Below are positions 29,567-45,073 of a stretch of DNA of 64,000 nucleotides, in pieces. The stretch lies in assembly GCF_055900595.2 (NCBI RefSeq), contig NZ_CM148325.1; one strand, 5' to 3'. The translations under genes and the position numbers were made by a program. Every line of letters starts with the position of its first letter. Position 1 is the stretch's first letter. The notes under the pieces are model-generated. The model had not been told where the DNA came from. It ran no database searches and saw nothing but the letters and a program-made list of their open reading frames with translations.

Positions 29567-30238
29567 ATGCAGTACCCGATTAACGAGATGTTCCAGACCC
29601 TGCAAGGTGAGGGTTACTTTACCGGCGTCCCCGCCATTTTTATTCGTTTACAGGGATGCCCGGTCGGCTGTGCCTGGTGCGACACCAAACACACCTGGGA
29701 AAAGCTTGAGGATCGGGAAGTCTCCCTTTTCAGCATTCTGGCGAAGACCAAAGAGAGTGATAAGTGGGGGGCGGCGAGCAGTGAAGATTTGCTGGCTGTC
29801 ATTGGTCGTCAGGGATACACCGCGCGGCATGTGGTGATTACGGGTGGTGAGCCTTGCATTCATGATTTGCTGCCACTGACTGACCTGCTCGAAAAGAACG
29901 GTTTTAGCTGCCAGATCGAAACCAGCGGTACTCATGAAGTACGCTGCACGCCGAATACCTGGGTTACCGTATCGCCAAAGCTGAACATGCGCGGCGGCTA
30001 TGAAGTGTTGTCACAGGCACTGGAACGAGCCAACGAAATCAAGCATCCAGTGGGACGCGTACGTGATATTGAAGCACTGGATGAACTACTGGCAACGCTG
30101 ACCGATGATAAACCACGAGTCATTGCACTGCAGCCAATTAGCCAGAAGGACGATGCCACACGTTTGTGCATTGAAACCTGTATTGCGCGTAACTGGCGTT
30201 TATCGATGCAAACACATAAATATTTAAATATTGCCTGA
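29567..30238 (+). CDS. queE: 7-carboxy-7-deazaguanine synthase QueE (radical SAM)
   Basis: 223-aa ORF with CPVGCAWCDT radical-SAM cysteine motif. Confidence 0.9.
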   Translation: MQYPINEMFQTLQGEGYFTGVPAIFIRLQGCPVGCAWCDTKHTWEKLEDREVSLFSILAKTKESDKWGAASSEDLLAVIGRQGYTARHVVITGGEPCIHDLLPLTDLLEKNGFSCQIETSGTHEVRCTPNTWVTVSPKLNMRGGYEVLSQALERANEIKHPVGRVRDIEALDELLATLTDDKPRVIALQPISQKDDATRLCIETCIARNWRLSMQTHKYLNIA

Positions 30239-30576
30239 TTAAACATTTATAAGCGTTATAAATGGGTGGAACCTGTAAAGACTTCCACTCATTTATATTC
30301 TTTGTCGCCTCTGAAAAAACTCCATTTTGCCCATCCTGGACTAATCATTATCATTCTCTACAAATTCTCTGGCGTTAATTTTTCGTTGGAGTGAAAATTA
30401 TTGCGGTAAAGTTTGGTAGATTTTAGTGGGTATAGAGTTATTTTAAATATTTACTTTTTTAATCAATGGATTAAGTGTTCTTTAACATAATGGATGTGTT
30501 GTTTGTGTGATCCTGTAAAGTTGGTAGATTGTGACTGGCTTAAAAAATCATTAATTAATAATAGGTTATGTTTAGA

Positions 30577-31154
30577 GAGTTCCCCACGTCAGCGGGGATA
30601 AACCTTGCTCGATGCGGGCGTTAACTTTTTTATAGGCGAGTTCCCCGCGCCAGCGGGGATAAACCGCGTAATTTTGTACGCTCAACACGTAACTAAATGA
30701 GTTCCCCGCGCCAGCGGGGATAAACCGATCACCAGTGCGGATTGTTCAAATAGTGCCTGGAGTTCCCCGCGCCAGCGGGGATAAACCGAGAGCTATATCG
30801 CAGCGTTTAACTGGATGACAGAGTTCCCCGCGCCAGCGGGGATAAACCGGTGTTTTTTGCCATCTGAACTGTGGCACGCCGGAGTTCCCCGCGCCAGCGG
30901 GGATAAACCGTCTATAATGTCTCATCCGGGGTTAATTCAATCGAGTTCCCCGCGCCAGCGGGGATAAACCGATCAGCCCCACATCCGGTTTTGCCAGCAA
31001 CGTGAGTTCCCCGCGCCAGCGGGGATAAACCGTAAGATGATCTCACGGAATTGAACGAACTACGGAGTTCCCCGCGCTAGCGGGGATAAACCGGACACAG
31101 AGCGCCGCTATAGCGCCTATGCCAAGAGTTCCCCGCACCAGCGGGAATAAACCA
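30577..31154 (+). CRISPR. Type I-E CRISPR array (CRISPR 2.3-like): 10 repeats, 9 spacers of 32 nt
   Basis: 29-nt repeat GAGTTCCCCGCGCCAGCGGGGATAAACCG at 61-bp period starting 30577, 30638, ... 31126; first and last repeats degenerate; AT-rich leader-like region 30240..30576. Confidence 0.95.
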
Positions 31155-31608
31155 CCATATAACCCGTTATCTCTTTCTCAAGTTTTTATATTAGCAGTAC
31201 TCGTATTAAGCAACATATCCACGTAACACCTCATGTTCAAAATAGCTCTCCATATATGAGAAGTTCACAATTATCGATACAAAAAATCAAATTTAATTAA
31301 AGTGTTAGTTGTATAATACTTAAATCATTAAGAAATTATCATATATTATTTTTTTAATATTGAATTGATGTTTGTTAATTTTTTCTTTAGGATAATAGTT
31401 TGTTTTTTAAGCTTATTATTCATTGATTAAGTAATAAATCTGGAAATTTGTCTTTGTTTTGAGGCTAATGAGTGATTTTACATAATCGCCTCTATAGGCT
31501 GTTGATGAATAGTTCTTATGAATAAAGATATCCAGTTCATACTTTAAGTGAAAATTGATAAAGTGCGATTCGTATTGTCTTTTATTCTAATGACATCGAG
31601 TGTAGTTA

Positions 31609-31746
31609 ATATTCCTTGTAAAAACAGGGATAAACCGAACTAGTTAAAGTTTTTATTATGTTCCCTGCATCAGCGGGGATAAACCGGACTTGTTATCATT
31701 TTTTAAGTTGTCGAACTTATGTTCCCCGCGCCAGCGGGGATAACCA
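31609..31746 (+). CRISPR. Degenerate mini-array (CRISPR 2.2-like remnant), about 3 repeats
   Basis: Repeats ATGTTCCCTGCATCAGCGGGGATAAACCG (31658) and ATGTTCCCCGCGCCAGCGGGGATAACC (31719) plus a partial upstream copy ending ...CAGGGATAAACCG (31637). Confidence 0.7.
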
Positions 31747-31792
31747 TTCAGGTATGTTCAGGCCGGGCAGTTTCCCGCCCGGCCTTCCTCAC

Positions 31793-33271
31793 TTACGCAT
31801 TCGACCAGCTCTGGATCGAATCTTCATTCCCCAGCTCACCATGCATCACTTCATACGATTTTTTCAGGATCACATCAGTGTGCTTGGTTAGGTCTTTGAA
31901 AATGCCTTTATTCATCGCGTCGTAGCGTTTGGCGTTGCTCTCAACAGGCATAAAGATATCTTTCACGCGAACCATTTTGTCGACAGCCGTTGCGTAATCC
32001 GGGTATAGCCCCAGACCTACCGTCGTATTAATCGCTGCCCCCAGACTTGCACAACCATTAATGGCGTTACGGCGTGCCGGAAGGTTGAACACGTCGGCAA
32101 AAATCTGCATAAACAGATCGCTGTTCGAACCGCCGCCAGTAATGATCACATGCTTTGCAAAGTGATTCATTTCATTACACATATTGTCGTAATTGTTCTT
32201 CAGCGTCAGCGCCACGCTTTCCAGTATTGAACGATATATCCATGCGTAATCCATGCTGGAATCAAAGCCGATCATAATCCCGCGTTTGTACGGTTCCCAC
32301 GGATTGGTCAGCCAGTCCAGCACCGTCATCAGACCATTACAGCCAGGCGGCACACAAGACGCTTTTTTGTTGAGCAAATCTTCCGGTGAAAGATCCTGTG
32401 CTTTGGCATCCTGAATTAACGACTCGCCTAACATGTCGCGCAGCCAGCTCACTGTCCACATGCCTTTGCGGATACCGTAACCTTCATACAGCAAGGTTTG
32501 CGGAATAGAAGACATAATCGGCCAGTACGCTACCGGATCTTTCGGCAGTACTTTGCCGTTCATCATCAACGCGATGTAAGTGCCAAGAGAAATTACCGCA
32601 GTTTCATCATCCAGTAACCCGGCTCCCAGTGCTTCTACCGGTTTATCACTGGTGGTACAAACAACCGGCAGCCCAGCCGGGAAATGTGTCGCCAGCGCGG
32701 CTTGTGGTGTGATATGCCCAAGAACAGTGCCCGGCATTTGCACATCAAAAAGCATCTGTCGGGGAATATTAAACTTCTCCATTACCGCGGTATCTTCGCT
32801 CCATGCCCAGGTCTTATAATCCACCGGCCACTGACCAAAATAGTTGGCGATATTGTCTTTAAACTCGCCGGTTAAACGGTGTGTCAGATAACCTGAAAAA
32901 GAGGTGACATATGCCACATCAGGATTGGTGTGCTCGTAGGGACGTGTTACGCGTGCATCCTGCCAGCTAATCAACGGCGCAGCTGGCGTGCCATCGGCTT
33001 TCAATAACGCACGGCAGCAACGGATAGATCCCAGACCAATGCCGACAATATCTTCTTTATTCCCGGCAAACTGGCTCATCAAATCGTGACCGGCAAAACA
33101 TAATGATGCCCATAAATCGTCGTCAGGATGTTCTGCGGTATCGGCATCTGGCGTGCGCATCGGCTGCAATAAGCCTTTGCCTTCGCATACCACATTACCT
33201 TCCAGATCGTACATCACCACTTTTGTGCTCTGACTTCCGCCATCAATCCCTATGATGTATTTTTTCGACAT
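31793..33271 (-). CDS. ygcE: FGGY-family carbohydrate kinase
   Basis: 492-aa ORF MSKKYIIGIDGGSQSTKVVMYDLEGN... sugar-kinase N-terminus. Confidence 0.85.
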   Translation of the reverse strand: MSKKYIIGIDGGSQSTKVVMYDLEGNVVCEGKGLLQPMRTPDADTAEHPDDDLWASLCFAGHDLMSQFAGNKEDIVGIGLGSIRCCRALLKADGTPAAPLISWQDARVTRPYEHTNPDVAYVTSFSGYLTHRLTGEFKDNIANYFGQWPVDYKTWAWSEDTAVMEKFNIPRQMLFDVQMPGTVLGHITPQAALATHFPAGLPVVCTTSDKPVEALGAGLLDDETAVISLGTYIALMMNGKVLPKDPVAYWPIMSSIPQTLLYEGYGIRKGMWTVSWLRDMLGESLIQDAKAQDLSPEDLLNKKASCVPPGCNGLMTVLDWLTNPWEPYKRGIMIGFDSSMDYAWIYRSILESVALTLKNNYDNMCNEMNHFAKHVIITGGGSNSDLFMQIFADVFNLPARRNAINGCASLGAAINTTVGLGLYPDYATAVDKMVRVKDIFMPVESNAKRYDAMNKGIFKDLTKHTDVILKKSYEVMHGELGNEDSIQSWSNA

Positions 33272-33297
33272 GATTTTTCTCCTGTAATTTTCTGGAC

Positions 33298-34575
33298 TTA
33301 CTTGCTGCTAGCCATTGCGGGGGCGCTATCAGCAGTACGAATTTTTTGGAACAGCAAAAAGGTAAAGACGATCACCATGCCAAGCGCCGCCATGCCCATC
33401 AGCCACATATTGCGGTAGGCTTCTGCCGCGGGCAGGGTGTCTTGCCAGTAGCCGATAATTGGGTAAACGAAGACATCCGGCAGGAATCCAATCACCGAAC
33501 AAATACCTACCGTGGTGCCCATAATGTAAGACGGTGTTCTCGCTTCGCCGGGGCAGGCCCAGTACAGCCCGCGTGAGGCGTAACAGGTGAATCCCAGAAG
33601 TAAAATCAGACCAACCCCCATCGCGACCGATTGCGGGTTAGAGTTCGTGATGAGCAGGGCAGTTAACGCCAGCAGGCCGAGTACGGAAAGGATTTGGATC
33701 ACGCGGGTAGGGGATTTCACTTTGCTGTAGGTGGTGATAATGCCACCAAGTGGGCCGCACAGTGCGCGGAAGATTTTGTTGATCACAATCCCCATGTAGC
33801 TCGCCGCCACCAGCGACATGCCGTACATTTCGGTCAGATAGTTGGTGGAGTAACTCAGAATGGCGTAGATGGTGAAGACGCCAAAAATCACCATGCTGCA
33901 GTACCATGTGGTGCTGATACGCAAAACGGCAAGGATGTCGCTAAGCTGGAATGACTGTTTTTCTTCGGTGTTGGTATTGCGCAGGTTGTTGTTATCGCTA
34001 ACAAAAAACCAGCACAGAATCCCCAACAAGATGTAAACCACACTATAGATGATAATGACCGTTTTCAGGCTGGCGCTGTCATCCGGTGCAAAGCGAGAAA
34101 AGACCCACATGGTAAACACCGCCAGCGACATTACACCGACGCCGCGCAGCCCTTCCATCCAGCCCATAATTTTCCCTTGCTCGCTATGATCGCCAAGCAA
34201 CGATGCGGCTTTAATCGACACCGACCACAGCATTAAAATCGTCGTTATCGCAAAGGCGACCTGAATACAGAGCATTACCCACAGCGGTGGATACGTTGCC
34301 ATTAACAGACCCAGCAATCCGGTAATGATCATCGCGGAAGTAATCATTTTGCGATGCGAAAATTTATCGGCAATAACGCCGCTGGGGGCATAAAGAATAA
34401 TAGCCGCAATACCAAAGGTACTCATTATTAAACCTATCTCGGTATTGCTGAATCCCATAAATTTAGCCATGGGAATTTGATAAATATAACGTAAATAAGC
34501 CAGATCAAAACTAACGCCGCCACTAAAACTAATTATCGCGAGGGTTATCCAACGGCGATATGAGTTGTGTTGCAT
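33298..34575 (-). CDS. yqcE: MFS transporter
   Basis: 425-aa multi-pass membrane ORF. Confidence 0.82.
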   Translation of the reverse strand: MQHNSYRRWITLAIISFSGGVSFDLAYLRYIYQIPMAKFMGFSNTEIGLIMSTFGIAAIILYAPSGVIADKFSHRKMITSAMIITGLLGLLMATYPPLWVMLCIQVAFAITTILMLWSVSIKAASLLGDHSEQGKIMGWMEGLRGVGVMSLAVFTMWVFSRFAPDDSASLKTVIIIYSVVYILLGILCWFFVSDNNNLRNTNTEEKQSFQLSDILAVLRISTTWYCSMVIFGVFTIYAILSYSTNYLTEMYGMSLVAASYMGIVINKIFRALCGPLGGIITTYSKVKSPTRVIQILSVLGLLALTALLITNSNPQSVAMGVGLILLLGFTCYASRGLYWACPGEARTPSYIMGTTVGICSVIGFLPDVFVYPIIGYWQDTLPAAEAYRNMWLMGMAALGMVIVFTFLLFQKIRTADSAPAMASSK

Positions 34576-34753
34576 ATCGTATTCCCATTTGTAATAGACA
34601 AAAAAAAGAGAAAAGTAAGCCGCCCTTTCAGGTGGATTACTTTTCTCAGGTCTCTAGTAATTGCAATAAGAAATAACATGGAAAGCAGTGGTGTTGTGTG
34701 AGAGTAGTCACGCTTCTGCTTTTTAAAATTATTTGATAATACGAATATCACAC

Positions 34754-34769
34754 TGTGATTACGATCACA
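34754..34769. promoter_or_regulatory. Consensus CRP box TGTGA-N6-TCACA
   Basis: TGTGATTACGATCACA exact consensus half-sites, centred about 30 bp upstream of a TAAAAT -10-like hexamer (34791..34796). Confidence 0.6.
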
Positions 34770-34826
34770 TTAGCGCTTATGCCCTTATGCTAAAAATTAT
34801 CTCCAGTTACCAGAGATAATGAGAAA

Positions 34827-34869
34827 GGTAACTTCCCTCTCGCGGGGGAAGTTACCTTTCTTTTTTTTT
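34827..34869 (+). terminator. Leader intrinsic terminator (attenuator) upstream of ygcW
   Basis: 11-bp perfect stem GGTAACTTCCC / GGGAAGTTACC, 8-nt loop, then TTTCTTTTTTTTT; sits 25 nt before the ygcW RBS. Confidence 0.65.
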
Positions 34870-34893
34870 GCCTTACGGAAATTGGAGCTAACT

Positions 34894-35679
34894 ATGTCAA
34901 TCGAATCTCTCAATGCGTTCTCAATGGATTTTTTCTCCCTGAAAGGTAAAACCGCAATTGTTACTGGTGGGAATAGCGGTTTAGGCCAGGCATTTGCCAT
35001 GGCACTGGCAAAAGCAGGCGCAAATATCTTTATTCCTAGTTTCGTTAAAGATAATGGCGAAACAAAGGAAATGATTGAAAAACAGGGGGTTGAGGTGGGC
35101 TTCATGCAGGTGGATATCACCGCAGAAGGCGCGGCGCAGAAGATAATTGCCGCCTGTTGTGAACGTTTCGGCACCGTCGATATTCTGGTTAACAATGCCG
35201 GTATATGTAAGCTGAATAAGGTGCTGGATTTCGGTCGTGCCGACTGGGACCCGATGATTGACGTGAACCTGACCGCCGCATTCGAGTTAAGCTACGAAGC
35301 GGCAAAAATTATGATCCCGCAGAAAAGCGGTAAAATCATTAATATCTGTTCACTGTTTTCCTACTTAGGTGGTCAATGGTCTCCTGCTTATTCTGCCACT
35401 AAACATGCTCTTGCCGGATTCACCAAAGCTTATTGCGATGAACTAGGTCAATATAATATTCAGGTAAATGGTATTGCCCCTGGCTATTATGCAACAGATA
35501 TCACCCTGGCGACACGCAGTAATCCAGAAACTAATCAGCGCGTTCTTGATCATATTCCGGCAAACCGTTGGGGCGATACTCAGGATTTAATGGGCGCAGC
35601 CGTATTCCTCGCAAGTCCGGCTTCAAATTATGTTAACGGGCATTTATTAGTGGTCGATGGCGGTTATTTAGTGCGCTAA
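34894..35679 (+). CDS. ygcW: Short-chain dehydrogenase/reductase (deoxygluconate-dehydrogenase-like)
   Basis: ORF from MSIESLNAFSMDFFSLKGKTAIVTGGNSGLGQA... with TGGxSGxG Rossmann motif; GGAG RBS at 34885. Confidence 0.85.
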   Translation: MSIESLNAFSMDFFSLKGKTAIVTGGNSGLGQAFAMALAKAGANIFIPSFVKDNGETKEMIEKQGVEVGFMQVDITAEGAAQKIIAACCERFGTVDILVNNAGICKLNKVLDFGRADWDPMIDVNLTAAFELSYEAAKIMIPQKSGKIINICSLFSYLGGQWSPAYSATKHALAGFTKAYCDELGQYNIQVNGIAPGYYATDITLATRSNPETNQRVLDHIPANRWGDTQDLMGAAVFLASPASNYVNGHLLVVDGGYLVR

Positions 35680-35748
35680 TCCATAACGGTGGTTTCTGTT
35701 TTCTCTTATTAATGATTATTCCATTTTTATTATCAGGAAGGAATTACT

Positions 35749-37203
35749 ATGTCTTTATCTCGCGCAGCGATTGTCGACCAGCTAAAGGAAATTGTTGGTG
35801 CAGATCGCGTAATTACCGATGAAACAGTATTAAAGAAAAACAGTATTGACCGTTTTCGCAAATTTCCGGATATTCATGGCATTTATACTTTGCCGATTCC
35901 GGCAGCGGTCGTAAAACTCGGTTCCACAGAACAAGTATCCCGTGTGCTGAATTTTATGAATGCGCACAAAATTAACGGTGTGCCGCGTACCGGTGCTTCC
36001 GCTACCGAAGGTGGACTGGAAACTGTTGTGGAAAACTCGATAGTGCTTGATGGCTCTGCAATGAATCAAATCATTAATATTGATATAGAGAATATGCAGG
36101 CGACGGCGCAATGTGGCGTTCCGCTGGAAGTGCTGGAAAACGCGTTGCGTGAAAAAGGTTACACCACGGGGCATTCTCCGCAGTCAAAACCGTTGGCGCA
36201 GATGGGGGGACTGGTGGCGACCCGTAGTATCGGGCAGTTCTCCACACTCTACGGCGCAATCGAGGATATGGTCGTTGGCCTGGAAGCAGTACTGGCTGAT
36301 GGCACCGTGACACGCATTAAAAACGTGCCACGACGCGCGGCGGGCCCGGACATTCGTCACATCATCATCGGCAACGAAGGCGCATTGTGCTATATCACTG
36401 AAGTCACTGTGAAAATCTTTAAATTCACCCCGGAAAACAACCTCTTCTACGGTTATATCCTGGAAAACATGAAAACCGGCTTCAACATCCTACGTGAAAT
36501 CATGGTGGAAGGATATCGTCCGTCGATCGCTCGTTTATATGATGCTGAAGATGGCACGCAACACTTCACCCATTTTGCCGACGGTAAATGTGTACTGATC
36601 TTTATGGCTGAAGGTAACCCTCGCATTGCGAAGGCGACGGGCGAAGGGATTGCAGAAATCGTGGCACGTTACCCGCAATGCCAGCGCGTGGACAGTAAGC
36701 TGATCGAAACCTGGTTTAACAACCTGAACTGGGGACCGGATAAAGTGGCTGCCGAACGTGTGCAGATCCTCAAAACCGGCAACATGGGCTTTACCACCGA
36801 AGTGTCCGGCTGCTGGAGTTGTATACACGAAATCTACGAAAGCGTTATTAACCGTATTCGTACCGAGTTCGCGCACGCCGACGACATCACCATGCTGGGC
36901 GGTCACTCCTCTCATAGCTATCAGAACGGCACCAACATGTACTTCGTCTACGACTACAACGTCGTTGACTGTAAGCCGGAAGAGGAAATCGACAAATACC
37001 ACAATCCGCTCAACAAAATCATCTGCGAAGAAACCATTCGCCTCGGCGGTTCGATGGTACACCATCACGGTATCGGTAAACATCGTGTTCACTGGAGCAA
37101 ACTGGAACACGGCAGCGCGTGGACATTGCTGGAAGGGCTGAAAAAACAGTTCGATCCTAACGGCATTATGAATACGGGTACTATCTATCCGATTGAAAAA
37201 TAA
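35749..37203 (+). CDS. ygcU: FAD-linked oxidase (alkyl-DHAP synthase / D-lactate dehydrogenase-like)
   Basis: 484-aa ORF MSLSRAAIVDQLKEIVGADRVITDETVLKK... Confidence 0.82.
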   Translation: MSLSRAAIVDQLKEIVGADRVITDETVLKKNSIDRFRKFPDIHGIYTLPIPAAVVKLGSTEQVSRVLNFMNAHKINGVPRTGASATEGGLETVVENSIVLDGSAMNQIINIDIENMQATAQCGVPLEVLENALREKGYTTGHSPQSKPLAQMGGLVATRSIGQFSTLYGAIEDMVVGLEAVLADGTVTRIKNVPRRAAGPDIRHIIIGNEGALCYITEVTVKIFKFTPENNLFYGYILENMKTGFNILREIMVEGYRPSIARLYDAEDGTQHFTHFADGKCVLIFMAEGNPRIAKATGEGIAEIVARYPQCQRVDSKLIETWFNNLNWGPDKVAAERVQILKTGNMGFTTEVSGCWSCIHEIYESVINRIRTEFAHADDITMLGGHSSHSYQNGTNMYFVYDYNVVDCKPEEEIDKYHNPLNKIICEETIRLGGSMVHHHGIGKHRVHWSKLEHGSAWTLLEGLKKQFDPNGIMNTGTIYPIEK

Positions 37204-37296
37204 TGTGTCAGGCAGCGTTTCGCGATGACGGGGCGTTGTCTTTTCGGCTTCTCAACAGGGAAGCCGTTCTTATTACCGGACAATGAAGGGGTAAAG

Positions 37297-38634
37297 ATGA
37301 ACACTTCACCGGTGCGAATGGATGATTTACCGCTTAACCGTTTTCACTGTCGAATTGCTGCGCTGACTTTCGGCGCACACCTGACCGACGGTTATGTTCT
37401 CGGCGTCATTGGTTACGCCATAATTCAGCTTACACCCGCCATGCAACTGACGCCGTTTATGGCGGGAATGATCGGCGGCTCGGCGCTACTTGGCCTGTTT
37501 ATCGGCAGCCTGGTTTTGGGCTGGATCTCCGACCATATCGGGCGGCAAAAAATCTTCACCTTCAGCTTTATGCTGATTACACTCGCCTCGTTCCTGCAAT
37601 TTTTTGCCACCACGCCAGAGCATCTTATTGGACTGCGCATTTTGATCGGCATTGGGCTGGGAGGCGATTACTCAGTAGGCCACACCTTGCTGGCTGAATT
37701 TTCTCCGCGCCGCCATCGCGGTATTTTGCTGGGCGCTTTCAGCGTGGTGTGGACCGTAGGTTATGTGTTGGCAAGTCTTGCCGGACATCACTTTATTAGC
37801 GAAAGCCCCGAAGCCTGGCGATGGTTACTTGCATCGGCGGCATTTCCTGCCCTGTTGATTACGTTGTTACGTTGGGGAACGCCAGAATCGCCACGCTGGC
37901 TACTGCGCCAGGGGCGTTTTGCAGAAGCTCACGCTATCGTGCATCGCTATTTTGGTCCCCATGTTTTACTGGGCGATGAAGTGGCAACGGCGACCCATAA
38001 ACACATCAAAACCTTGTTCTCTTCGCGCTACTGGCGGCGCACGGCGTTTAACAGTGTCTTCTTTGTCTGCCTCGTGATCCCGTGGTTTGTGATTTATACC
38101 TGGCTGCCAACTATCGCCCAGACTATTGGACTGGAAGATGCGCTGACTGCCAGCCTGATGCTTAATGCGTTGTTAATTGTGGGCGCGCTGCTGGGATTAT
38201 TTCTGACGCACCTGCTGGCACATCGCAAATTTTTGCTGGGAAGTTTTTTGCTGCTGGCGGCAACGCTGGTAGTGATGGCCTGTTTGCCTTCTGGCAGTTC
38301 ATTAACGCTGCTGCTTTTTGTTCTCTTCAGCACCACCATTTCGGCAGTCAGTAATCTGGTGGGCATTTTGCCTGCGGAAAGTTTTCCTACTGACATTCGC
38401 TCGCTGGGTGTCGGTTTTGCCACTGCCATGAGTCGGTTGGGGGCGGCGGTAAGTACTGGCCTGCTGCCGTGGGTGCTGGCGCAGTGGGGAATGCAAGTCA
38501 CCTTATTGCTCCTGGCGGCAGTGTTGTTGGTTGGTTTTGTTGTGACCTGGCTATGGGCACCAGAAACCAAAGCACTCCCGCTGGTGGCGGCGGGAAATGT
38601 AGGAGGTACGAATGAACATTCTGTTAGCGTTTAA
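37297..38634 (+). CDS. ygcS: MFS transporter
   Basis: Multi-pass membrane ORF; start taken at MNTSPVRMDD. Confidence 0.8.
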   Translation: MNTSPVRMDDLPLNRFHCRIAALTFGAHLTDGYVLGVIGYAIIQLTPAMQLTPFMAGMIGGSALLGLFIGSLVLGWISDHIGRQKIFTFSFMLITLASFLQFFATTPEHLIGLRILIGIGLGGDYSVGHTLLAEFSPRRHRGILLGAFSVVWTVGYVLASLAGHHFISESPEAWRWLLASAAFPALLITLLRWGTPESPRWLLRQGRFAEAHAIVHRYFGPHVLLGDEVATATHKHIKTLFSSRYWRRTAFNSVFFVCLVIPWFVIYTWLPTIAQTIGLEDALTASLMLNALLIVGALLGLFLTHLLAHRKFLLGSFLLLAATLVVMACLPSGSSLTLLLFVLFSTTISAVSNLVGILPAESFPTDIRSLGVGFATAMSRLGAAVSTGLLPWVLAQWGMQVTLLLLAAVLLVGFVVTWLWAPETKALPLVAAGNVGGTNEHSVSV

Positions 38635-39391
38635 AGCCGAACCGGATGCCGGAATGCTGGCGGAAAAAGAGTGGCAGGCAGCGGCTCAGGGTAATAGCGG
38701 ACCGGATGTTTCGCTTCTGCGAAGTTTACTCGGTGCTGATGAACAGGCTGCCGCCGCGCTGCTGTTGGCGCAGAGAAAAAACGGTATGTCGATGTCTTTA
38801 ACCGCGTTGAGCATGGGGGATGAACGGGCGTTGCACTGGCTGCGCTATCTCATGGCTCTTGGGTTTGAGGAAGCTGTATTGCTGGAGACGGCGGCAGATA
38901 TGCGCTTTGCGCCGGAATTTGTCGCTCGCCATATTGCCGAATGGCAGCGCCAGAATCCGCTGGATCTGATCATTACTGGCTGCCAGAGCAGCGAAGGGCA
39001 GAACGGGCAAACGCCATTTTTGCTGGCGGAAATGCTGACCTGGCCCTGCTTTACCCAGGTGGAGCGTTTTACTCTCGACGCACCGTTTATCTCGCTCGAA
39101 CAGCGTACTGAACATGGATTACGCTGTTGTCGGGTTCGCTTGCCTGCGGTGATTGCCGTGCGCCAGTGTGGCGAGGTGGCCTTGCCAGTACCGGGAATGC
39201 GCCAGCGAATGGCTGCGGGGAAAGCTGAAATTATCCGCAAAACTGTTACTGCTGAATCGCCAGCGATGCAGTGCCGGCAACTGGAAAGGCCAGAGCAACG
39301 ACGCGGTGCAACGCTTCTTGATGGGCCAACGGTAGCAGAAAAAGCGCAAAAACTGTGGCGGGATTATTTGTGCCAGAGGATGCAGCCATGA
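38612..39391 (+). CDS. ygcR: Electron-transfer-flavoprotein beta-subunit-like protein (FixA-like)
   Basis: 259-aa ORF; start overlaps the ygcS 3' end. Confidence 0.8.
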   Translation: MNILLAFKAEPDAGMLAEKEWQAAAQGNSGPDVSLLRSLLGADEQAAAALLLAQRKNGMSMSLTALSMGDERALHWLRYLMALGFEEAVLLETAADMRFAPEFVARHIAEWQRQNPLDLIITGCQSSEGQNGQTPFLLAEMLTWPCFTQVERFTLDAPFISLEQRTEHGLRCCRVRLPAVIAVRQCGEVALPVPGMRQRMAAGKAEIIRKTVTAESPAMQCRQLERPEQRRGATLLDGPTVAEKAQKLWRDYLCQRMQP

Positions 39392-40248
39392 ATATCGCAA
39401 TTGTGACAATAAATCAGGACCATGCCGCAATAGCGAGCTGGCTGGCGGAGCAGGATTTCAGCGGCAGCACATTAACGCACTGGCAAATCGAGCCGCAGCC
39501 GATGGTCGCGGAACAGGTGCTGGATGCGCTGGTAGAACAGTGGCAGCGAACGCCTGCGGACGTTGTTCTCTTTCCGCCGGGAACGTTTGGCGATGAACTG
39601 GCTACCCGCCTGTCCTGGCGTTTACATGGTGCCAGTATATGCCAGGTGACTTCATTAAATATTCCAACCGGAAGCGTACGCAAATCCCACTGGGGAAATG
39701 CGCTAACGGCGACGCTGCAAACAGAAAAACGCCCGCTATGCCTTTCCCTTGCCCGCCAGGCGGGAGCAGTGAAAAATGCCACGTTGCCCTCTGGTATGCA
39801 GCAACTGAACATTGTCCCCGGCGCGCTTCCCGACTGGCTGGTTAGCACAGAGGATCTGAAAAATGTTACCCGTGACCCATTAGCTGAGGCCAGACGGGTG
39901 CTGGTGGTGGGGCAGGGCGGAGAGGCAGATAACCAGGAAATCGCTATGCTGGCAGAAAAGCTGGGAGCCGAAGTGGGCTACAGTCGGGCGCGAGTAATGA
40001 ACGGTGGCGTTGATGCCGAAAAAGTGATTGGTATTTCCGGACATCTGCTGGCACCTGAGGTGTGTATTGTTGTTGGCGCTTCCGGCGCAGCAGCGTTAAT
40101 GGCGGGCGTCCGCAATAGCAAGTTTGTGGTGGCGATTAATCATGACGCCAGCGCGGCGGTATTTTCACAGGCAGATGTTGGCGTGGTTGATGACTGGAAA
40201 GCGGTGCTGGAGGCACTGGTGACAACCATTCACGCAGATTGCCAATAA
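39388..40248 (+). CDS. ygcQ: Electron-transfer-flavoprotein alpha-subunit-like protein (FixB-like)
   Basis: ORF from MNIAIVTINQDHAAIASWL...; ATGA overlap with the ygcR stop. Confidence 0.8.
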   Translation: MNIAIVTINQDHAAIASWLAEQDFSGSTLTHWQIEPQPMVAEQVLDALVEQWQRTPADVVLFPPGTFGDELATRLSWRLHGASICQVTSLNIPTGSVRKSHWGNALTATLQTEKRPLCLSLARQAGAVKNATLPSGMQQLNIVPGALPDWLVSTEDLKNVTRDPLAEARRVLVVGQGGEADNQEIAMLAEKLGAEVGYSRARVMNGGVDAEKVIGISGHLLAPEVCIVVGASGAAALMAGVRNSKFVVAINHDASAAVFSQADVGVVDDWKAVLEALVTTIHADCQ

Positions 40249-40261
40249 CGTGCTGCCGGAT

Positions 40262-40365
40262 GATCCTGCCTACGGTTCTGGGCTGGGGACTTGTAAGCCT
40301 GATAAGACGCGTCAAGCGTCGTATCAGGCGCTGAATGTCGGATGTGGCGTGCAGCCTACAAATCA
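40262..40365. repeat. REP/BIME-type extragenic palindromes
   Basis: GCCTGATAAGACGCG...CGTCGTATCAGGC and related GCCGGATG / GTCGGATG units between convergent ygcQ and ygcP. Confidence 0.7.
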
Positions 40366-40394
40366 CACAAATTCAATTCGTTACGATTATCTCG

Positions 40395-40970
40395 TCAAAG
40401 CAATTTTTTCGCTAACGTCCAGACCCCGGTATTCGTGGTAGAAAGCGCCACTACACCGGCGTTAATCGCATTACGCGCATCTTCTTCATCGCACACCAGC
40501 CCGCCAGCAACCAGCGGCTGGTGGATTTTCTCCGTTACCCAGCCCAGTACTTTAGGCATACAGCCTGGCAGAATTTCAATACAATCCGGGTTCGATTGCG
40601 CAACCTGTTTATCAATGTTGTGAAATGAAATCGAATCAACAATAAACAAGCGATGAATACAGAAAAAGCCTTCCGCTCTCGCCGCTTTTAGCATTGACGC
40701 TTTGGTACTGATAATGCCGTCCGCCTCGGTCACCAGTTTCAGAAACTGAATTACTACTTCTTTATTTGACGCGCCTTCCAGCAAATCGACATGAATAAAA
40801 GCATATTTTCCGGCGTTCTTAATCTTTTTGACGATATGACTGATGGTGCAAATATTGCCGTACAACACGGAAATAAACCGGCATTCAGAGTCGATTGCCA
40901 GTTGCAGGCTGGCATTGTCTTTAACGGCAGCAATCACCGGATTCTGGCGGAGCAGGTGTAAGAGGGGCAT
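40395..40970 (-). CDS. ygcP: GlpP-like (glycerol-3-phosphate-responsive antiterminator family) protein
   Basis: 191-aa ORF MPLLHLLRQNPVIAAVKDNASLQLAIDSE... Confidence 0.8.
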   Translation of the reverse strand: MPLLHLLRQNPVIAAVKDNASLQLAIDSECRFISVLYGNICTISHIVKKIKNAGKYAFIHVDLLEGASNKEVVIQFLKLVTEADGIISTKASMLKAARAEGFFCIHRLFIVDSISFHNIDKQVAQSNPDCIEILPGCMPKVLGWVTEKIHQPLVAGGLVCDEEDARNAINAGVVALSTTNTGVWTLAKKLL

Positions 40971-40986
40971 AAATTATCCTTATTAT

Positions 40987-41247
40987 TTATCCAAAGCGGT
41001 AGGTGATGCCGAATCCGGAAGGCGGATAGCGCCACTGTTGTAGGGTTTTTTCATCACACAGTAAACGGCAGGTGCCACACTCCAGGCAGCCGCGATAATC
41101 AACGCGTAAGTCGCCTTCCGGCGTGAGCGAAAAAAGACCAGCCGGACAAGCGTTAATCAACCGTTCTGCCGTCTGGCGCTCAACGGAGTCTGCCGGAACA
41201 ATATGTGGCGCATCAGCAGCGCGCCAGAGATTACGGGCTACAGACAT
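40987..41247 (-). CDS. ygcO: Ferredoxin-like protein (FixX-like)
   Basis: 86-aa product from MSVARNLWRAADAPHIVP... with CxxCxxC-type cysteines. Confidence 0.78.
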   Translation of the reverse strand: MSVARNLWRAADAPHIVPADSVERQTAERLINACPAGLFSLTPEGDLRVDYRGCLECGTCRLLCDEKTLQQWRYPPSGFGITYRFG

Positions 41248-42509
41248 CGAATACTCCTGACAACATCGCCCGCCAGATGCCACAGGCCATGACGACGTAA
41301 ATGACGCCAGAGCAACTGGCGCAGCGGCGGAACAGGTTTATCACCTTGATCCCATAAATCACGGGAAATATCCTGCATTAACGCAGGCCACGCCCGATAC
41401 CAGCCAGGGCGTTGCAAAAGCGCCGGAACATGCTGATAACGCTGTAGAACATCCCACAACAGGCTGCGCTCTACGTTGTAATGATAAAGCGGAAACAGAT
41501 TTTGCAGCTCGCGGTGCTGGCAGGCGCTTATCAGCGTTTGTGCCGCCGCCTGCGCGCCAGTCAGCGCCATATCCATGCCGCGCACGGAAATTCCGGTATT
41601 GACGCAACTGCGTAACGTATCGCCCACCAGCAGCCAGCCGTTACCGCCATATTGCACCGGCATACTGTGCAAGCCACCTTCTGGCACCAGATGCGCACCA
41701 TACTCCAGTGATTCCGTGTTTTTGATAAGCGGGCGCACTGCCGGATGCGTTTTAAAGCGAGCCAGCAGCTCGCTTGCCGGAACACGACTTTGCGTAAGTG
41801 AAGAGAGCGGGCAAACAATCCCTAACGAGAGCGTTTGTTGATTAGTATAAAGAAATGCGCCGCCGGGTAAGTCATCACAGATTCCGCCGCTGAACAGCAA
41901 CGCTGCGCCTTCGTTATTCTCCAGATGAAAACGTTCTTCAATAGCGGATGTTTCCAGTGAAAGAACTTCTTTGATCCCCAACGCCATCACTTCGCCAGCA
42001 GGACGAGTCACTAACCCGTGACGCTCAGCCAGGACGCTGTTGGCACCTTCTGCCAGCACCACATAACGGGCGCGGAGAATATCGTCACCACAAATAACGC
42101 CGCAAACTCTGCCGTTTTCTTCATACAGTGCATCCACCGTCGCACCAGGGATGCATTCGACACCTTCTTTTTCGGCTTCGGCAACCAGCCACGGATCGAA
42201 CCGTGCACGTAATACGCTCCAGGATTCACCGCCGGGCTGTAAGCTGGAAAACGTCGTTGCGCCATCCGGCGTTAGCAGAGAAAGACTTTCGTGAGTGATG
42301 CGTCGTTCAAGAGGCGCGGTCAGGTGAAACTGAGGGAGGAGTTCCGCGAGCGCATGGGTGTATAAACGCCCGCCGGAAAGGTTTTTACTGCCGGGAATTT
42401 CAGCGCGTTCCAGTAACAGAACGGATAAACCTGCCCGCGCGCAGCGTAAAGCACAAGCGGTGCCTGCTATACCCGCACCAATAATAATAATGTCGCAGTC
42501 GTCTTCCAT
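41238..42509 (-). CDS. ygcN: FAD-dependent oxidoreductase (FixC / ETF-quinone-oxidoreductase-like)
   Basis: ORF with N-terminal dinucleotide-binding motif DIIIIGAGIAG; start taken at MEDDCD. Confidence 0.8.
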   Translation of the reverse strand: MEDDCDIIIIGAGIAGTACALRCARAGLSVLLLERAEIPGSKNLSGGRLYTHALAELLPQFHLTAPLERRITHESLSLLTPDGATTFSSLQPGGESWSVLRARFDPWLVAEAEKEGVECIPGATVDALYEENGRVCGVICGDDILRARYVVLAEGANSVLAERHGLVTRPAGEVMALGIKEVLSLETSAIEERFHLENNEGAALLFSGGICDDLPGGAFLYTNQQTLSLGIVCPLSSLTQSRVPASELLARFKTHPAVRPLIKNTESLEYGAHLVPEGGLHSMPVQYGGNGWLLVGDTLRSCVNTGISVRGMDMALTGAQAAAQTLISACQHRELQNLFPLYHYNVERSLLWDVLQRYQHVPALLQRPGWYRAWPALMQDISRDLWDQGDKPVPPLRQLLWRHLRRHGLWHLAGDVVRSIRCL

Positions 42510-42586
42510 GTCATGCCCCAGATATCCAGAGCGCAACACCCTAACATAGCGTTACTTAAGGGAAATTGACCGCCGACACACTCTTA

Positions 42587-42952
42587 TCATTCGCCGCGAT
42601 AGATACAACCTGCGGTGCAGGTTTCTTTTACCATCACCGCACTTAACAGCGGCACAACGGGTTTAACCTGATCCCAAATCCATTTTGCTAAAACTTCGCT
42701 GGTTGGGTTTTCCAGACCTGGAATATCATTGAGATAATGGTGATCGAGGCGCTCATAAGTTGGCTTAAACGCTGCTTTCAGTTCAGCGAAATCGATAATC
42801 CAGCCCGTATGCGGATCGACTTCCCCGGTAATTTCCAGTCGCACCATAAAGGAATGCCCGTGCAGGCGACCACATTTATGTCCTTCCGGGACGTGTGGTA
42901 AGCGGTGAGCGGCTTCGAAGGTGAAATCTTTAAATAACGTGGTGGACATCAT
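42587..42952 (-). CDS. queD: 6-carboxy-5,6,7,8-tetrahydropterin synthase QueD
   Basis: 121-aa product from [34 protein letters not shown]... Confidence 0.9.
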
Positions 42953-43267
42953 AATTTCTCTACATGACGATAAAACCGCCGTAGAGTACCGGAAAGGCTG
43001 TTTTTTCGCATTATCTAAAACGACTTTGTTGCGCAAAATCGCTGATTTATCTTAATGATTGGCTAAATTCATTTGTTTTTCATTGGGTTGGTTAATCTGT
43101 TTTGTTGTTAAAGACTATTGCTAAAACAGGTTAGTCGATTTGGTTATTAGTTATCGCTATCCCGTCTTTAATCCACACCGTTCACCCCGTTAACCTTACC
43201 TTCTCTTCTGTTTTATGGGCGCTGACAGGGCGCAGAAACAGCTTTGCTTACTGGAACATAACGACGC

Positions 43268-45073
43268 ATGACGACACAGGTCCCACCTTCCGCGTTGCTT
43301 CCGTTGAACCCGGAGCAACTGGCACGCCTTCAGGCGGCCACGACCGATTTAACTCCCACCCAGCTTGCCTGGGTTTCTGGCTATTTCTGGGGCGTGCTCA
43401 ACCAACAGCCTGCTGCGCTTACAGCGACGCCAGCGCCCGCCCCCGCCGCAGAAATGCCGGGTATAACTATTATCTCCGCTTCGCAAACCGGCAATGCGCG
43501 CCGGGTTGCTGAAACATTACGCGATGATTTATTAGCGGCAAAACTGAACGTTAAGCTGGTGAACGCGGGCGACTATAAATTCAAACAAATCGCCAGCGAA
43601 AAACTGCTCATCGTGGTGACGTCAACGCAAGGTGAAGGGGAACCGCCGGAAGAAGCCGTCGCGCTGCATAAGTTCCTGTTCTCCAAAAAAGCGCCAAAGC
43701 TGGAAAACACTGCATTTGCCGTGTTTAGCCTCGGCGATAGCTCTTATGAATTTTTCTGCCAGTCCGGGAAAGATTTTGACAGCAAGCTGGCGGAACTGGG
43801 CGGTGAACGCCTGCTCGACCGTGTCGATGCCGACGTTGAATACCAGGCTGCTGCCATCGAGTGGCGCGCCCGCGTGGTTGATGTTCTGAAGTCCCGTACG
43901 CCTGTCGCGGCACCTTCGCAATCCGTCGCTACTGGCGCGGTAAATGAAATCCACACCAGCCCGTACAGCAAAGACGCGCCGCTGGTGGCGAGCCTCTCTG
44001 TTAACCAGAAAATTACCGGGCGTAACTCTGAAAAAGACGTTCGCCATATCGAAATTGACTTAGGTGACTCGGGCCTGCGTTACCAGCCGGGTGACGCGCT
44101 GGGCGTCTGGTATCAGAACGATCCGGCACTGGTGAAAGAACTTGTCGAACTGCTGTGGCTGAAAGGCGATGAACCTGTCACCGTCGAGGGCAAAACGTTA
44201 CCTCTGAACGAGGCCCTACAGTGGCACTTCGAACTGACCGTCAACACCGCCAACATCGTTGAGAACTACGCCACGCTTACCCGCAGTGAAACGCTGCTGC
44301 CGCTGGTGGGCGATAAAGCGAAGTTACAGCATTACGCCGCGACGACGCCGATTGTCGATATGGTGCGTTTCTCTCCGGCACAGCTTGACGCTGAAGCCCT
44401 CATTAACTTGCTGCGCCCGCTGACGCCGCGCCTGTATTCCATCGCCTCCTCGCAGGCGGAAGTCGAGAACGAAGTACACGTCACCGTTGGTGTCGTTCGT
44501 TATGACATTGAAGGCCGCGCCCGTGCCGGTGGTGCCTCCAGCTTCCTTGCGGATCGTGTGGAAGAAGAGGGCGAAGTCCGCGTCTTTATCGAACATAACG
44601 ATAACTTCCGCCTGCCCGCTAACCCGGAAACGCCGGTGATTATGATTGGTCCAGGCACCGGCATCGCGCCGTTCCGCGCCTTTATGCAGCAACGTGCTGC
44701 TGACGAAGCGCCGGGCAAAAACTGGCTGTTCTTTGGCAATCCGCACTTTACGGAAGATTTCCTCTACCAGGTGGAGTGGCAGCGCTACGTCAAAGAGGGC
44801 GTGCTGACACGTATTGATCTTGCCTGGTCGCGCGATCAAAAAGAAAAAGTTTACGTACAAGACAAACTGCGCGAACAGGGCGCAGAGCTGTGGCGCTGGA
44901 TCAATGACGGTGCCCACATTTATGTCTGCGGCGACGCTAATCGCATGGCGAAAGACGTTGAACAGGCACTTCTGGAAGTGATTGCCGAATTTGGTGGCAT
45001 GGACACCGAAGCGGCGGATGAATTTTTAAGTGAGCTGCGCGTAGAGCGCCGTTATCAGCGAGATGTCTACTAA
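43268..45073 (+). CDS. cysJ: Sulfite reductase [NADPH] flavoprotein alpha component
   Basis: 601-aa [31 protein letters not shown]... Confidence 0.95.

Follow-up and report, generated by a model that had tools for sequence, protein, structure and literature searches.

A predicted leader RNA switch with CRP-controlled promoters and a widely distributed four-gene core in the ygc locus of Escherichia

The ten genes ygcE, yqcE, ygcW, ygcU, ygcS, ygcR, ygcQ, ygcP, ygcO and ygcN occupy positions 31793-42509 of a 64,000-nucleotide stretch of contig NZ_CM148325.1 (hereafter the window) and are transcribed in three blocks, yqcE-ygcE (minus strand), ygcW-ygcU-ygcS-ygcR-ygcQ (plus strand) and ygcN-ygcO-ygcP (minus strand). 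With a probability of about 0.6, the locus is an inducible catabolic regulon whose core consists of the GlpP-family protein YgcP, the kinase YgcE, the short-chain dehydrogenase/reductase (SDR) YgcW and the flavoenzyme YgcU. In E. coli, two major facilitator superfamily (MFS) importers and an electron-transfer branch would be added to this core, expression would be controlled by leader RNAs and CRP, and the substrate would pass from the kinase through the SDR to YgcU. The best-supported new result is a leader RNA switch with class II CRP promoters in front of the two divergent operons. An initial annotation of the window had described a compact catabolic locus under RNA-level control and with no defined substrate, and this general picture was upheld, as was control by CRP.

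The divergent intergenic region between ygcW and yqcE is 318 nt long (34576-34893) and contains a strong hairpin with a U run immediately upstream of each gene, on that gene's sense strand. The ygcW leader consists of a 5' box AGUUACC (34805-34811), the motif AGAGA (34812-34816), a 19-bp terminator hairpin (34821-34862) and a U9 run (34861-34869); the corresponding elements of the yqcE leader are AAUUACU (34662-34656), AGAGA (34655-34651), a terminator hairpin (34647-34608) and a U8 run (34607-34600). The ygcW hairpin, which is the strongest terminator-like site of the region, folds at -31 kcal/mol (z -7) and the yqcE hairpin at -21 kcal/mol (z -3.5). Both leaders share near-identical stem bases (GAGAAARGUAA...UUACYUUUCUC), and leader length is 64-68 nt. 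A pattern search with the stem sequence gave matches in other Enterobacterales, Clostridia and a Spirochaete. A covariance model was then built from 22 copies and matched 59 copies at E<=1e-3 from 36 sources in four phyla, a count that includes reverse-strand shadows of true copies. The yqcE and ygcW leaders scored 80.9 and 77.7 bits, respectively, and were the only sites in the window to match the model, two further matches being their reverse-strand shadows. Listeria carries a weaker variant directly after a consensus promoter. A scan of positions 30000-43500 against Rfam at E<=1 returned two chance-level matches, none over either leader.

Comparative evidence for two competing helices was obtained from these copies. 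In the wide alignment, 91.6% of the cells of the terminator helix were paired, compensatory changes were present in 14 of the 19 pairs, and none of 500 shuffles scored as high, with slid controls at 60-73% paired; these values carry the caveat that the alignment had been fitted to the model. The 5' bases of the leader (RGUUACY) are complementary to RGUAAC in the distal left arm of the terminator. Within Enterobacterales two of the seven pairs of this antiterminator helix covary, and across the wide set a duplex of 5-8 bp is available in all 56 of 56 copies, with at least five compensatory variants (AGUUACU:AGUAACU, AAUUACU:AGUAAUU, GGUUACU:AGUAACC, GUUGCU:AGCAAC, CUACC:GGUAG and GGUCGCU:AGUGACC). 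The loop enclosed by the duplex is purine-rich and conserved in sequence (AGAG-N3-7-GAGAAA). The leader is laid out as expected for a protein-stabilised antiterminator in competition with a terminator, and control at the RNA level is strongly supported. In Clostridial clusters the leader motif was seen a third time, within the operon between the kinase gene and the gene resembling alkyl-dihydroxyacetonephosphate synthase, with a much longer hairpin top (loci L051, 5194-5278; L060, 11444-11528; L066, 8715-8797).

Because the leader motif travels with a GlpP-family gene, YgcP is the obvious binding partner, and it is proposed to hold the antiterminator. YgcP matches PF04309 (G3P_antiterm) over its full length (residues 12-184 to model positions 1-173 of 173, E 6e-62), and its solved homologues include 3kts (E 1e-28) and 1vkf. 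Its clade, which on our own reading of the alignment shares only about 35% identity with the solved GlpP homologue, forms a group tied to ygcW, ygcU and ygcE and co-occurs with these genes and with the leader motif; the covariance-model search did not find the motif in four loci that have a YgcP homologue and lack YgcW, YgcU and YgcE. In Bacillus subtilis, GlpP together with glycerol-3-phosphate disrupts 5'-untranslated-region (UTR) terminators (PMC9604022). The two systems are alike in the full-length PF04309 protein and in the intrinsic terminator within the 5'-UTR of the target operons (glpD, glpFK and glpTQ in B. subtilis), and the override of that terminator upon binding of a phosphorylated intermediate made by the pathway kinase is proposed by analogy for YgcP. 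They differ in that the ygc-regulated genes are not glycerol genes and the effector of YgcP may well not be glycerol-3-phosphate, and the ygc leader is provisionally set apart by its lack of an Rfam match, its covariation-backed antiterminator at the 5' end and its class II CRP promoters in gamma-proteobacteria. The leader also resembles the RAT-terminator arrangement (ribonucleic antiterminator) of BglG/SacY, in which a protein stabilises a short antiterminator hairpin that overlaps the terminator's left arm, as is proposed for ygc. Unlike that system, YgcP belongs to an unrelated family (no CAT or PRD domain), the motif is unrelated, and the antiterminator lies at the very 5' end of the transcript.

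Promoter positions agreed with this architecture. Transcription starts at 34803 (ygcW) and 34664 (yqcE) were inferred from the ends of the covariance-model matches, -10 elements, published RNA lengths and the 139-nt spacing of published 5' ends, and CRP sites are centred at 34761.5 and 34704.5, respectively. A CRP-like site with 8-10 of 10 half-site matches stands at a fixed distance in every Enterobacterales and Vibrionaceae leader copy, 43.5-45.5 nt upstream of the 5' box in all gamma-proteobacterial copies, and Firmicutes have a sigma-70 -35/-10 pair in its place. Since one or the other of these elements occupies a fixed position upstream, the leader RNA element is taken to start at the transcription start. 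The assignment of both divergent promoters as class II CRP promoters is well supported by position (site near -41.5), and activation is predicted. The ygcW site was predicted in 2007 by PhyloScan (PMC1794230), and for its binding by CRP in vitro a Kd of 1.7 nM has been estimated (PMC12871828). For the transcripts, K-12 RNA-seq data of Romero et al. (2014) placed two 'potentially novel sRNAs' in the ygcW-yqcE spacer, ecr2774 (73 nt) and ecr2775 (63 nt), whose 5' ends are 139 nt apart, and a northern blot was published for the small RNA (sRNA) upstream of yqcE (PMC4681348). The spacing of 5' ends predicted from the model matches at 34803 and 34664 is 139-140 nt, and ecr2774 and ecr2775 agree in size and spacing with the predicted terminated leaders.

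The divergent spacer (34576-34893) is better conserved than its neighbouring genes: identity is 95-100% in every genome that carries it, against 90-95% for the coding sequence in most genomes. For the yqcE leader, identity reaches at least 99% in 5000 of 5063 E. coli genomes, and the K-12 spacer is of equal length and identical at 311 of 318 positions without an indel, its ygcW leader being identical throughout. The idea that the hairpins merely serve as bidirectional terminators of the divergent genes was rejected, since each is positioned between promoter and start codon, on the sense strand of its own operon.

The distribution of the locus was examined by aligning YgcP homologues and scanning one genome per species, which gave 80 loci; the E. 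coli proteins were compared by BLAST with the open reading frames (ORFs) of these loci. About 70 of 84 loci have YgcP, YgcW, YgcU and YgcE side by side, and they represent Enterobacterales, Vibrionaceae, Clostridia, halophilic Bacilli, Listeria sensu lato, Actinobacteria, Spirochaetes and Enterococcus raffinosus. Across phyla, identities to the E. coli proteins were unusually high for YgcW (61-80%) and YgcU (56-72%), and were 42-58% for YgcE. Genes for an electron-transfer flavoprotein (ETF) follow ygcU only in anaerobes and facultative anaerobes; the gene order ygcU-ygcR-ygcQ recurs in many phyla. FixC and FixX (YgcN and YgcO) were restricted to Enterobacterales, and all four electron-transfer genes are missing in Pantoea, Erwinia, Ewingella and Serratia proteamaculans. 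Transporters varied as well. YqcE-like MFS proteins occur in the clusters of enterics, Listeria, Vibrionaceae and Actinobacteria; divergent carriers of the betaine/choline/carnitine transporter (BCCT) family in those of halophiles, marine Vibrionaceae and sediment Clostridia; and ATP-binding cassette (ABC) systems of the OpuB/C/OsmF type in those of Gracilibacillus, Salsuginibacillus, a Syntrophomonadaceae metagenome-assembled genome (MAG) and Enterococcus. Some of these BCCT and Opu-type transporters are preceded by the leader motif or belong to the same operon, and in Gracilibacillus the ABC transporter genes form one gene string with ygcW, ygcE and ygcU. The cluster BCCT proteins are divergent, score below the family cut-off and by our own reading of the sequence have one changed tryptophan in the BetP box. 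Because transporters, ETF and FixCX vary while YgcP, YgcW, YgcU and YgcE stay together, the ten genes resolve into a core with interchangeable uptake and redox modules. The complete ten-gene pathway of the initial annotation therefore stood as a catabolic locus and not as a conserved unit, only the four core genes being kept across phyla while ETF and FixCX are restricted.

Purifying selection acts on all ten genes and is looser on the redox module. Pairwise ratios of nonsynonymous to synonymous substitution rates (dN/dS), computed against E. albertii, typical E. coli, Citrobacter and Yokenella, were 0.01-0.25 overall, 0.012-0.05 for the core (ygcE, 0.03-0.05; ygcW, 0.012-0.033; ygcP, 0.013-0.034; ygcU within the core range), 0.04-0.07 for the transporters, and 0.06-0.25 for YgcR, YgcQ, YgcN and YgcO (ygcR, 0.10-0.22; ygcQ, 0.14-0.25).

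Profile searches against NCBIfam and Pfam agreed with the family labels given earlier to the ten proteins, none of which reached an NCBIfam equivalog cut-off. The exception in substance was YgcU, which had been taken for a plain FAD-linked oxidase and was found to carry the catalytic signature of alkyl-dihydroxyacetonephosphate synthase (ADPS, also AGPS). ADPSs are its closest solved relatives (8e-41 from the single sequence), ahead of glycolate oxidase and LctD, and the family profile matches ADPS at 5e-61 with both domains of the FAD_binding_4 fold covered. In a profile alignment to 4bby, R262, Y398 and H438-440 of YgcU, invariant in 19 homologues, align with R419, Y578 and H615-617 of ADPS; the ADPS numbering was fixed by the mutant entries 4bc7 and 4bca, in which R419H and Y578F were deduced from alignment differences. 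The C-terminal EHG motif of D-2-hydroxyacid dehydrogenases binds metal. At this place YgcU has V-H-H-H-G-I-G and departs from E-H-G-x-G, whereas the second oxidase present in some anaerobic clusters has T-E-H-G-V-G. YgcU is, on these residues, to be regarded as ADPS-like rather than as a generic FAD oxidase; in a paper of 2026, ygcU still figures among uncharacterised genes, as an FAD oxidoreductase. It differs from ADPS in lacking about 200 N-terminal residues (484 aa versus 584-658 aa, the alignment beginning at ADPS residue 204), in an extra GGHSSHSY motif invariant in its family, in its place in an inducible catabolic operon and in the ETF genes that often follow it. The small-molecule importers and catabolic control of the operon argue against lipid synthesis by YgcU.

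ADPS acts at C1 of a dihydroxyacetone phosphate (DHAP) ester, and its catalysis involves no net redox change. The ether-lipid route to which it belongs also uses an alkylglycerol kinase. An SDR acts on alkyl-DHAP beside ADPS in that route (PMC13200781). The ygc core shares this make-up, with an accompanying SDR (in ether-lipid synthesis the alkyl-DHAP reductase DHRS7B) and a kinase for a glycerol-type precursor. YgcW scored 351 bits with the NCBIfam KduD model (cut-off 369), and its closest solved structures are 2-deoxy-D-gluconate 3-dehydrogenase and gluconate 5-dehydrogenase. YgcE gave NCBIfam matches to xylulokinase, autoinducer-2 (AI-2) kinase and glycerol kinase, all far under the equivalog cut-offs, and its closest solved structure is LsrK (E 4e-29). 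Among the transporters, YqcE gave weak NCBIfam matches to the D-galactonate and phosphoglycerate transporter subfamilies and YgcS gave matches, all under cut-off, to aromatic-acid, sugar-porter and organic-cation subfamilies. YgcS has been described as a NiaP homologue whose overexpression raised the titre of nicotinamide mononucleotide (PMC8601175). An alternative start of ygcS at ATG 37297 was deduced from an AAGGGG Shine-Dalgarno sequence. This start would give the shorter protein of the K-12 annotation (445 aa). A 9-bp GC-rich hairpin (37245-37266) was seen between the two candidate starts in the ygcU-ygcS junction (37204-37297) and could be an internal attenuator or processing site.

The electron-transfer genes are accessory to the four-protein core, and electron flow to quinone through ETF and FixCX is plausible. 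YgcR gave weak NCBIfam matches to ETF beta, its best solved relatives being the Paracoccus and human proteins (about 1e-11), and its GQT aligns with the NQT of human ETF beta, which we take to be an AMP-type nucleotide motif. The best solved relatives of YgcQ are ETF alpha subunits of the non-bifurcating kind (about 4e-22). Compared with 5ow0 and 1efv, YgcQ keeps the FAD motifs S-R, G-x-S/T-G, V-G-x-S-G-A and A-I-N-x-D, which are invariant in the family alignment, and has SGAAAL for the canonical SGAIQH, with loss of the Gln-His pair. As the SGAAAL/F variant is conserved in the cluster-linked ETF alpha proteins of Enterobacterales and Clostridia, it marks a subfamily and not decay. Scores of YgcR and YgcQ were higher against human, Paracoccus and Geobacter ETFs, which we take to be non-bifurcating, than against bifurcating ETFs, a comparison based on the order of scores and one motif. 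YgcN has an FAD Rossmann fold with a GAGIAG motif, a quinone-binding ETFQO_UQ-bd domain (PF21162, E 1.3e-6) and matches of 362-378 bits to NCBIfam FixC subfamily models, under their cut-offs. YgcO scored 82.6 bits with the FixX model (cut-off 166), and its cysteines are present (C34-P and C54xxC57xxC60xxxC64). A degenerate ETF, which the initial annotation had named as grounds for abandoning its proposal, was rejected on the conserved FAD motifs in the family and on purifying selection, YgcR, YgcQ, YgcN and YgcO having kept their cofactor motifs apart from the Gln-His pair of YgcQ.

Variants of the redox module in other taxa were recorded as follows. A second FAD oxidase of the GlcD/LctD type follows the ETF genes in anaerobic Firmicutes and Photobacterium (loci L045, L049, L051, L055, L057, L063, L002 and L066). 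Geosporobacter (L045) and a Firmicutes MAG (L057) have, beside the cluster, a further ETF pair whose alpha subunit is long (399-419 aa) and which may be a full LctBCD-like set; these observations hint at a 2-hydroxyacid as pathway product. Inside the clusters of a Spirochaete MAG and Dethiosulfatibacter (L061 and L063) a gene for a SurE-like phosphatase was found, which suggests that a phosphorylated product is dephosphorylated in those taxa.

Two kinds of ETF system invite comparison. The fixABCX genes (beside caiTABCDE) and ydiQRST resemble the ygc set in comprising ETF beta, ETF alpha, a quinone-domain FixC-like protein and a 4Fe-4S FixX-like protein encoded by translationally coupled genes; the ygc set differs from FixABCX in its divergent ETF alpha, in best scores against non-bifurcating ETFs, in being dispensable in many carriers of the core and in its presumed partner, an ADPS-like enzyme in place of an acyl-CoA dehydrogenase. 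LctBCD of Acetobacterium woodii (7qh2) resembles it in that the gene of a flavoenzyme of the VAO/GlcD superfamily adjoins those of EtfB and EtfA, and the passage of electrons between enzyme flavin and ETF established there is predicted for YgcU and YgcRQ. Unlike LctBCD, YgcU lacks the EHG motif and YgcQ lacks the N-terminal ferredoxin domain of LctC; true LctD-like paralogues are present as an extra gene in some of the clusters from anaerobes. The polyol operons dal, rbt and ery share with ygc a transporter, an SDR, an FGGY kinase and catabolite (CRP) control; ygc differs from them in its ADPS-like flavoenzyme, in a predicted RNA-binding antiterminator where they have a DNA-binding repressor, and in betaine-type transporters in many taxa.

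The favoured mechanism would run as follows. By default each transcript would stop at the intrinsic terminator of its leader, yielding the 63- and 73-nt RNAs. Once it carries a phosphorylated intermediate of the pathway, YgcP would bind and hold the antiterminator, and RNA polymerase would then read into ygcW-ygcU-ygcS-ygcR-ygcQ and yqcE-ygcE. A small hydroxylated compound imported by YqcE or YgcS would be phosphorylated by YgcE, YgcW would oxidise an adjacent secondary alcohol to a DHAP-like keto-phosphate, and YgcU, with its ADPS active-site residues, would act on the carbon beside the ketone. The YgcU flavin would exchange electrons with the YgcR/YgcQ ETF, which YgcN and YgcO would link to the quinone pool, most probably in the direction from substrate to quinone. 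The order YgcE, YgcW, YgcU is favoured because the ADPS, SDR and kinase of the ether-lipid route are the same three enzyme classes. Besides the fitted alignment and the lost Gln-His pair mentioned above, several points weigh against this proposal. The order of the three enzymes is taken from their classes alone, by analogy; YgcU need not depend on ETF, as aerobes (halophilic Bacilli, Actinobacteria, Pantoea and Erwinia) keep YgcW, YgcU and YgcE without a dedicated ETF; the ADPS reaction is itself redox-neutral; the LctD/GlcD-type oxidase that follows ETF in several anaerobes could be the real ETF partner there; and the substrate may differ between taxa, since the E. coli importers are MFS proteins and not BCCT or Opu systems.

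Which compound is degraded can be narrowed from the same evidence. The polyol or sugar acid suggested by the initial annotation became doubtful: a plain compound of either kind is unlikely because YgcU keeps ADPS residues and the transporters of other taxa are of betaine, choline and carnitine types (BCCT and OpuB/C/OsmF), and by analogy with such carriers the regulon transporters point to a quaternary-ammonium-type substrate group. The constraints we infer are import by BCCT, Opu or MFS transporters, at least two hydroxyls, a phosphate ester sensed by a GlpP-like protein and a DHAP-like oxidised form, and a glycerol-type moiety with a quaternary-ammonium or betaine substituent would fit them. 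A bolder version, which goes well beyond the regulon model and is put forward as speculation we consider unlikely, is that YgcE, YgcW and YgcU perform ether-lipid head-group reactions in reverse. The kinase would phosphorylate a substituted glycerol-type moiety, the SDR would convert it to a substituted DHAP, and ADPS-like cleavage of the C1 bond would release DHAP or a close derivative together with a small onium or betaine compound; in anaerobes and enterics this step would be coupled to a dedicated ETF, with the leaders as a new phylum-spanning RNA class for GlpP-family antiterminators. Candidate substrates under this version, weighed from chemistry alone, are deacylated betaine-lipid head groups, glycerophosphocholine-like compounds and 2,3-dihydroxypropyl-onium compounds; dihydroxypropanesulfonate was also weighed as a candidate on the same basis.

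Two other accounts of the chemistry were considered. YgcU might share the proposed core chemistry and yet be redox-neutral (an ADPS-like substitution or hydrolysis releasing DHAP) or reductive, ETF and FixCX feeding electrons in or serving another oxidase. This is a serious rival, because no dedicated ETF is needed by aerobic carriers and the chemistry of ADPS is redox-neutral. Evolution of ETF and FixCX four to ten times faster than the core also speaks for it, as do the second LctD-like oxidase beside ETF in 8 of about 14 non-enterobacterial ETF-bearing loci and the paralogous fixABCX set of E. coli, which lies beside the reductive carnitine pathway with a BCCT transporter and is presumed to feed carnitine reduction. 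Against it, ETF genes stand right after ygcU, without a second oxidase, in E. coli, other Enterobacterales, Vibrio hannami, a Spirochaete, Enterococcus raffinosus and the Syntrophomonadaceae MAG; YgcR and YgcQ score best against non-bifurcating ETFs, and YgcN carries the quinone-binding domain of ETF-quinone oxidoreductase. A role of this kind is possible, though it is held only tentatively. The alternative of a classical polyol or sugar-acid route, in which a ketose or keto-acid formed by the SDR is phosphorylated by the FGGY kinase and a GlcD/LctD-like YgcU oxidises a hydroxy-acid or polyol phosphate with electrons passing through ETF/FixCX to quinone, is judged rather doubtful. MFS, SDR and FGGY proteins are the standard make-up of polyol operons, the nearest relatives of YgcW act on sugar acids, YqcE resembles sugar-acid symporters, YgcU also matches GlcD and LctD (more weakly), and the LctD-EtfAB complex is a solved precedent (7qh2). 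These likenesses are set against the HHHG of YgcU in place of the metal-binding EHG and the R419 and Y578 elements that it shares with ADPS, against the EHGVG of the true GlcD/LctD-type paralogue in anaerobic clusters, against the BCCT and OpuB/C/OsmF transporters of other taxa, some of them behind the leader motif or in the same operon, and against the failure of every protein to reach an equivalog cut-off.

The leaders and the locus as a whole could also be interpreted differently. That the leaders are not targets of YgcP at all, acting instead as metabolite riboswitches by themselves or as independent trans-acting sRNAs as first catalogued, would agree with the accumulation of discrete 63- and 73-nt RNAs and with their extreme conservation. 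It is very improbable, however, given that what is conserved amounts to a single short hairpin whose purine loop measures 13-20 nt, too simple a structure for the ligand-binding folds that are known, that the motif always lies 5' of operons adjoining a YgcP-clade gene and was not found where a YgcP homologue has other neighbours, and that a terminator/antiterminator pair is the classic design of protein-dependent antitermination, as practised by the GlpP family in B. subtilis. Less credible still is a cryptic, decaying remnant without current function in E. coli. No phenotype or substrate was found reported in the literature, the locus has been lost in about 6-7% of genomes and its operons are terminated in the leader under laboratory conditions; yet the ten ORFs are intact in more than 5000 genomes, dN/dS is 0.01-0.25 for every gene, the cofactor motifs are kept, and the conservation of promoters, CRP sites and leaders exceeds that of synonymous sites. 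The selection data have already largely refuted this idea.

The features of the locus are listed in Table 1. All ten ORFs are intact in the ORF table of the window, as first annotated, and the same ten genes appear in the PGAP annotation of a 99.7% identical genome. Operon compactness was likewise verified (ygcR and ygcQ share ATGA at 39388-39391; ygcS/ygcR and ygcN/ygcO overlap by 23 and 10 nt), and so was the convergence of two blocks on a repetitive extragenic palindromic (REP) element, or bacterial interspersed mosaic element (BIME). The ygcQ-ygcP spacer (40249-40394) contains a 14-nt palindrome (40297-40310/40316-40329) and is assigned as REP/BIME because this palindrome matches at least 40 places per E. 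coli genome; the Rfam family naRNA4 gave a weak, sub-threshold match there.

Table 1. Annotated features of the ygc locus, in coordinates of the 64,000-nt window
Feature	Position	Strand	Description
ygcE	31793..33271	-	FGGY-family kinase, 492 aa
yqcE	33298..34575	-	MFS transporter, anion:cation symporter type, 425 aa; opens the yqcE-ygcE operon
yqcE leader RNA	34600..34664	-	Covariance-model match and hairpin fold
CRP-like site TGTGAGAGTAGTCACG (+ strand reading)	34697..34712		Centre about 41 nt upstream of inferred yqcE leader start
CRP site TGTGATTACGATCACA	34754..34769		Centre 41.5 nt upstream of inferred ygcW leader start (34803)
ygcW leader RNA	34803..34870	+	Covariance-model match and terminator-like hairpin
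ygcW	34894..35679	+	Classical SDR dehydrogenase, 261 aa
ygcU	35749..37203	+	FAD_binding_4 flavoenzyme resembling alkyl-DHAP synthase, 484 aa
ygcS	37225..38634	+	MFS transporter, sugar-porter/NiaP-like type; 37225 is the PGAP start
ygcR	38612..39391	+	ETF beta subunit, 259 aa
ygcQ	39388..40248	+	ETF alpha subunit, divergent clade, 286 aa
REP/BIME element	40249..40394		Spacer of convergent ygcQ and ygcP
ygcP	40395..40970	-	GlpP-family (PF04309) antiterminator protein, 191 aa; last gene of ygcN-ygcO-ygcP
ygcO	40987..41247	-	FixX-like ferredoxin, 86 aa
ygcN	41238..42509	-	FixC/ETF-quinone-oxidoreductase-like flavoprotein, 423 aa

On its upstream side the locus is bordered by a type I-E CRISPR array of ten repeats (about 30578-31155), followed by an AT-rich stretch and by two or three orphan degenerate repeats (31626-31748) that abut the 3' end of ygcE, which corroborates the CRISPR remnant noted there at first. 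PADLOC models gave nothing meaningful that would link the locus to defence, despite the CRISPR neighbour. Just past the ygcE stop a GC-rich palindrome, GGCCGGGC...GCCCGGCC (31757-31790), lacks a clear U run and may be a REP-like element or a terminator. At the other end, 77 nt (42510-42586) separate the queD stop from the ygcN start; neither a copy of the leader motif nor an obvious terminator was found in this gap, and the regulator operon ygcN-ygcO-ygcP may be expressed by read-through from queD or from a weak promoter of its own.

The GC content of the locus is unremarkable, and the full locus is present in 5060 of 5426 complete E. coli genomes and patchy among other Enterobacterales. The description as an island thus held for the existence of a real locus, while a foreign island was rejected on ordinary GC content and near-universal presence in E. 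coli. About 6-7% of complete E. coli genomes have lost it almost wholly, with short remnants of the ygcE and ygcN ends, and insertion sequences interrupt it in a few others. Eight complete genomes filed as E. coli match positions 31793-42509 at 99.7% identity, and about 5400 others match them at 90-99% (K-12 MG1655, 95.1%); for the ygc locus and for cysJI (43268-46785) alike, identity is at least 99% in only 8 of the 5426 complete 'E. coli' genomes and 90-95% in most. Synonymous divergence (dS) from typical E. coli is 0.27-0.48, about the same as from E. albertii. Judged from these values, the window is from a divergent Escherichia lineage. The absence of a defined substrate was confirmed, in that no assignment of substrate or mechanism to the ten ygc genes was found in the literature and annotation, some gene-name queries being swamped by unrelated strings, and source names across thousands of cluster members were generic only.

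The leader switch accounts for two published anonymous K-12 RNAs and offers a direct experimental handle on the inducer. Its motif provides, for the first time outside the glycerol regulon, a comparative model of the RNA target of a GlpP-family protein, and it is compact and portable, which makes it a possible regulatory part. Among the ten conserved K-12 genes without a function is one of the organism's three ETF/FixCX sets. Their core has been reduced to four assayable proteins, and the ADPS-like site together with the betaine-type transporters found elsewhere narrows the chemical search. If the substrate is indeed onium- or betaine-linked, the locus would bear on the turnover of osmolytes and lipid head groups in gut, marine and hypersaline bacteria.

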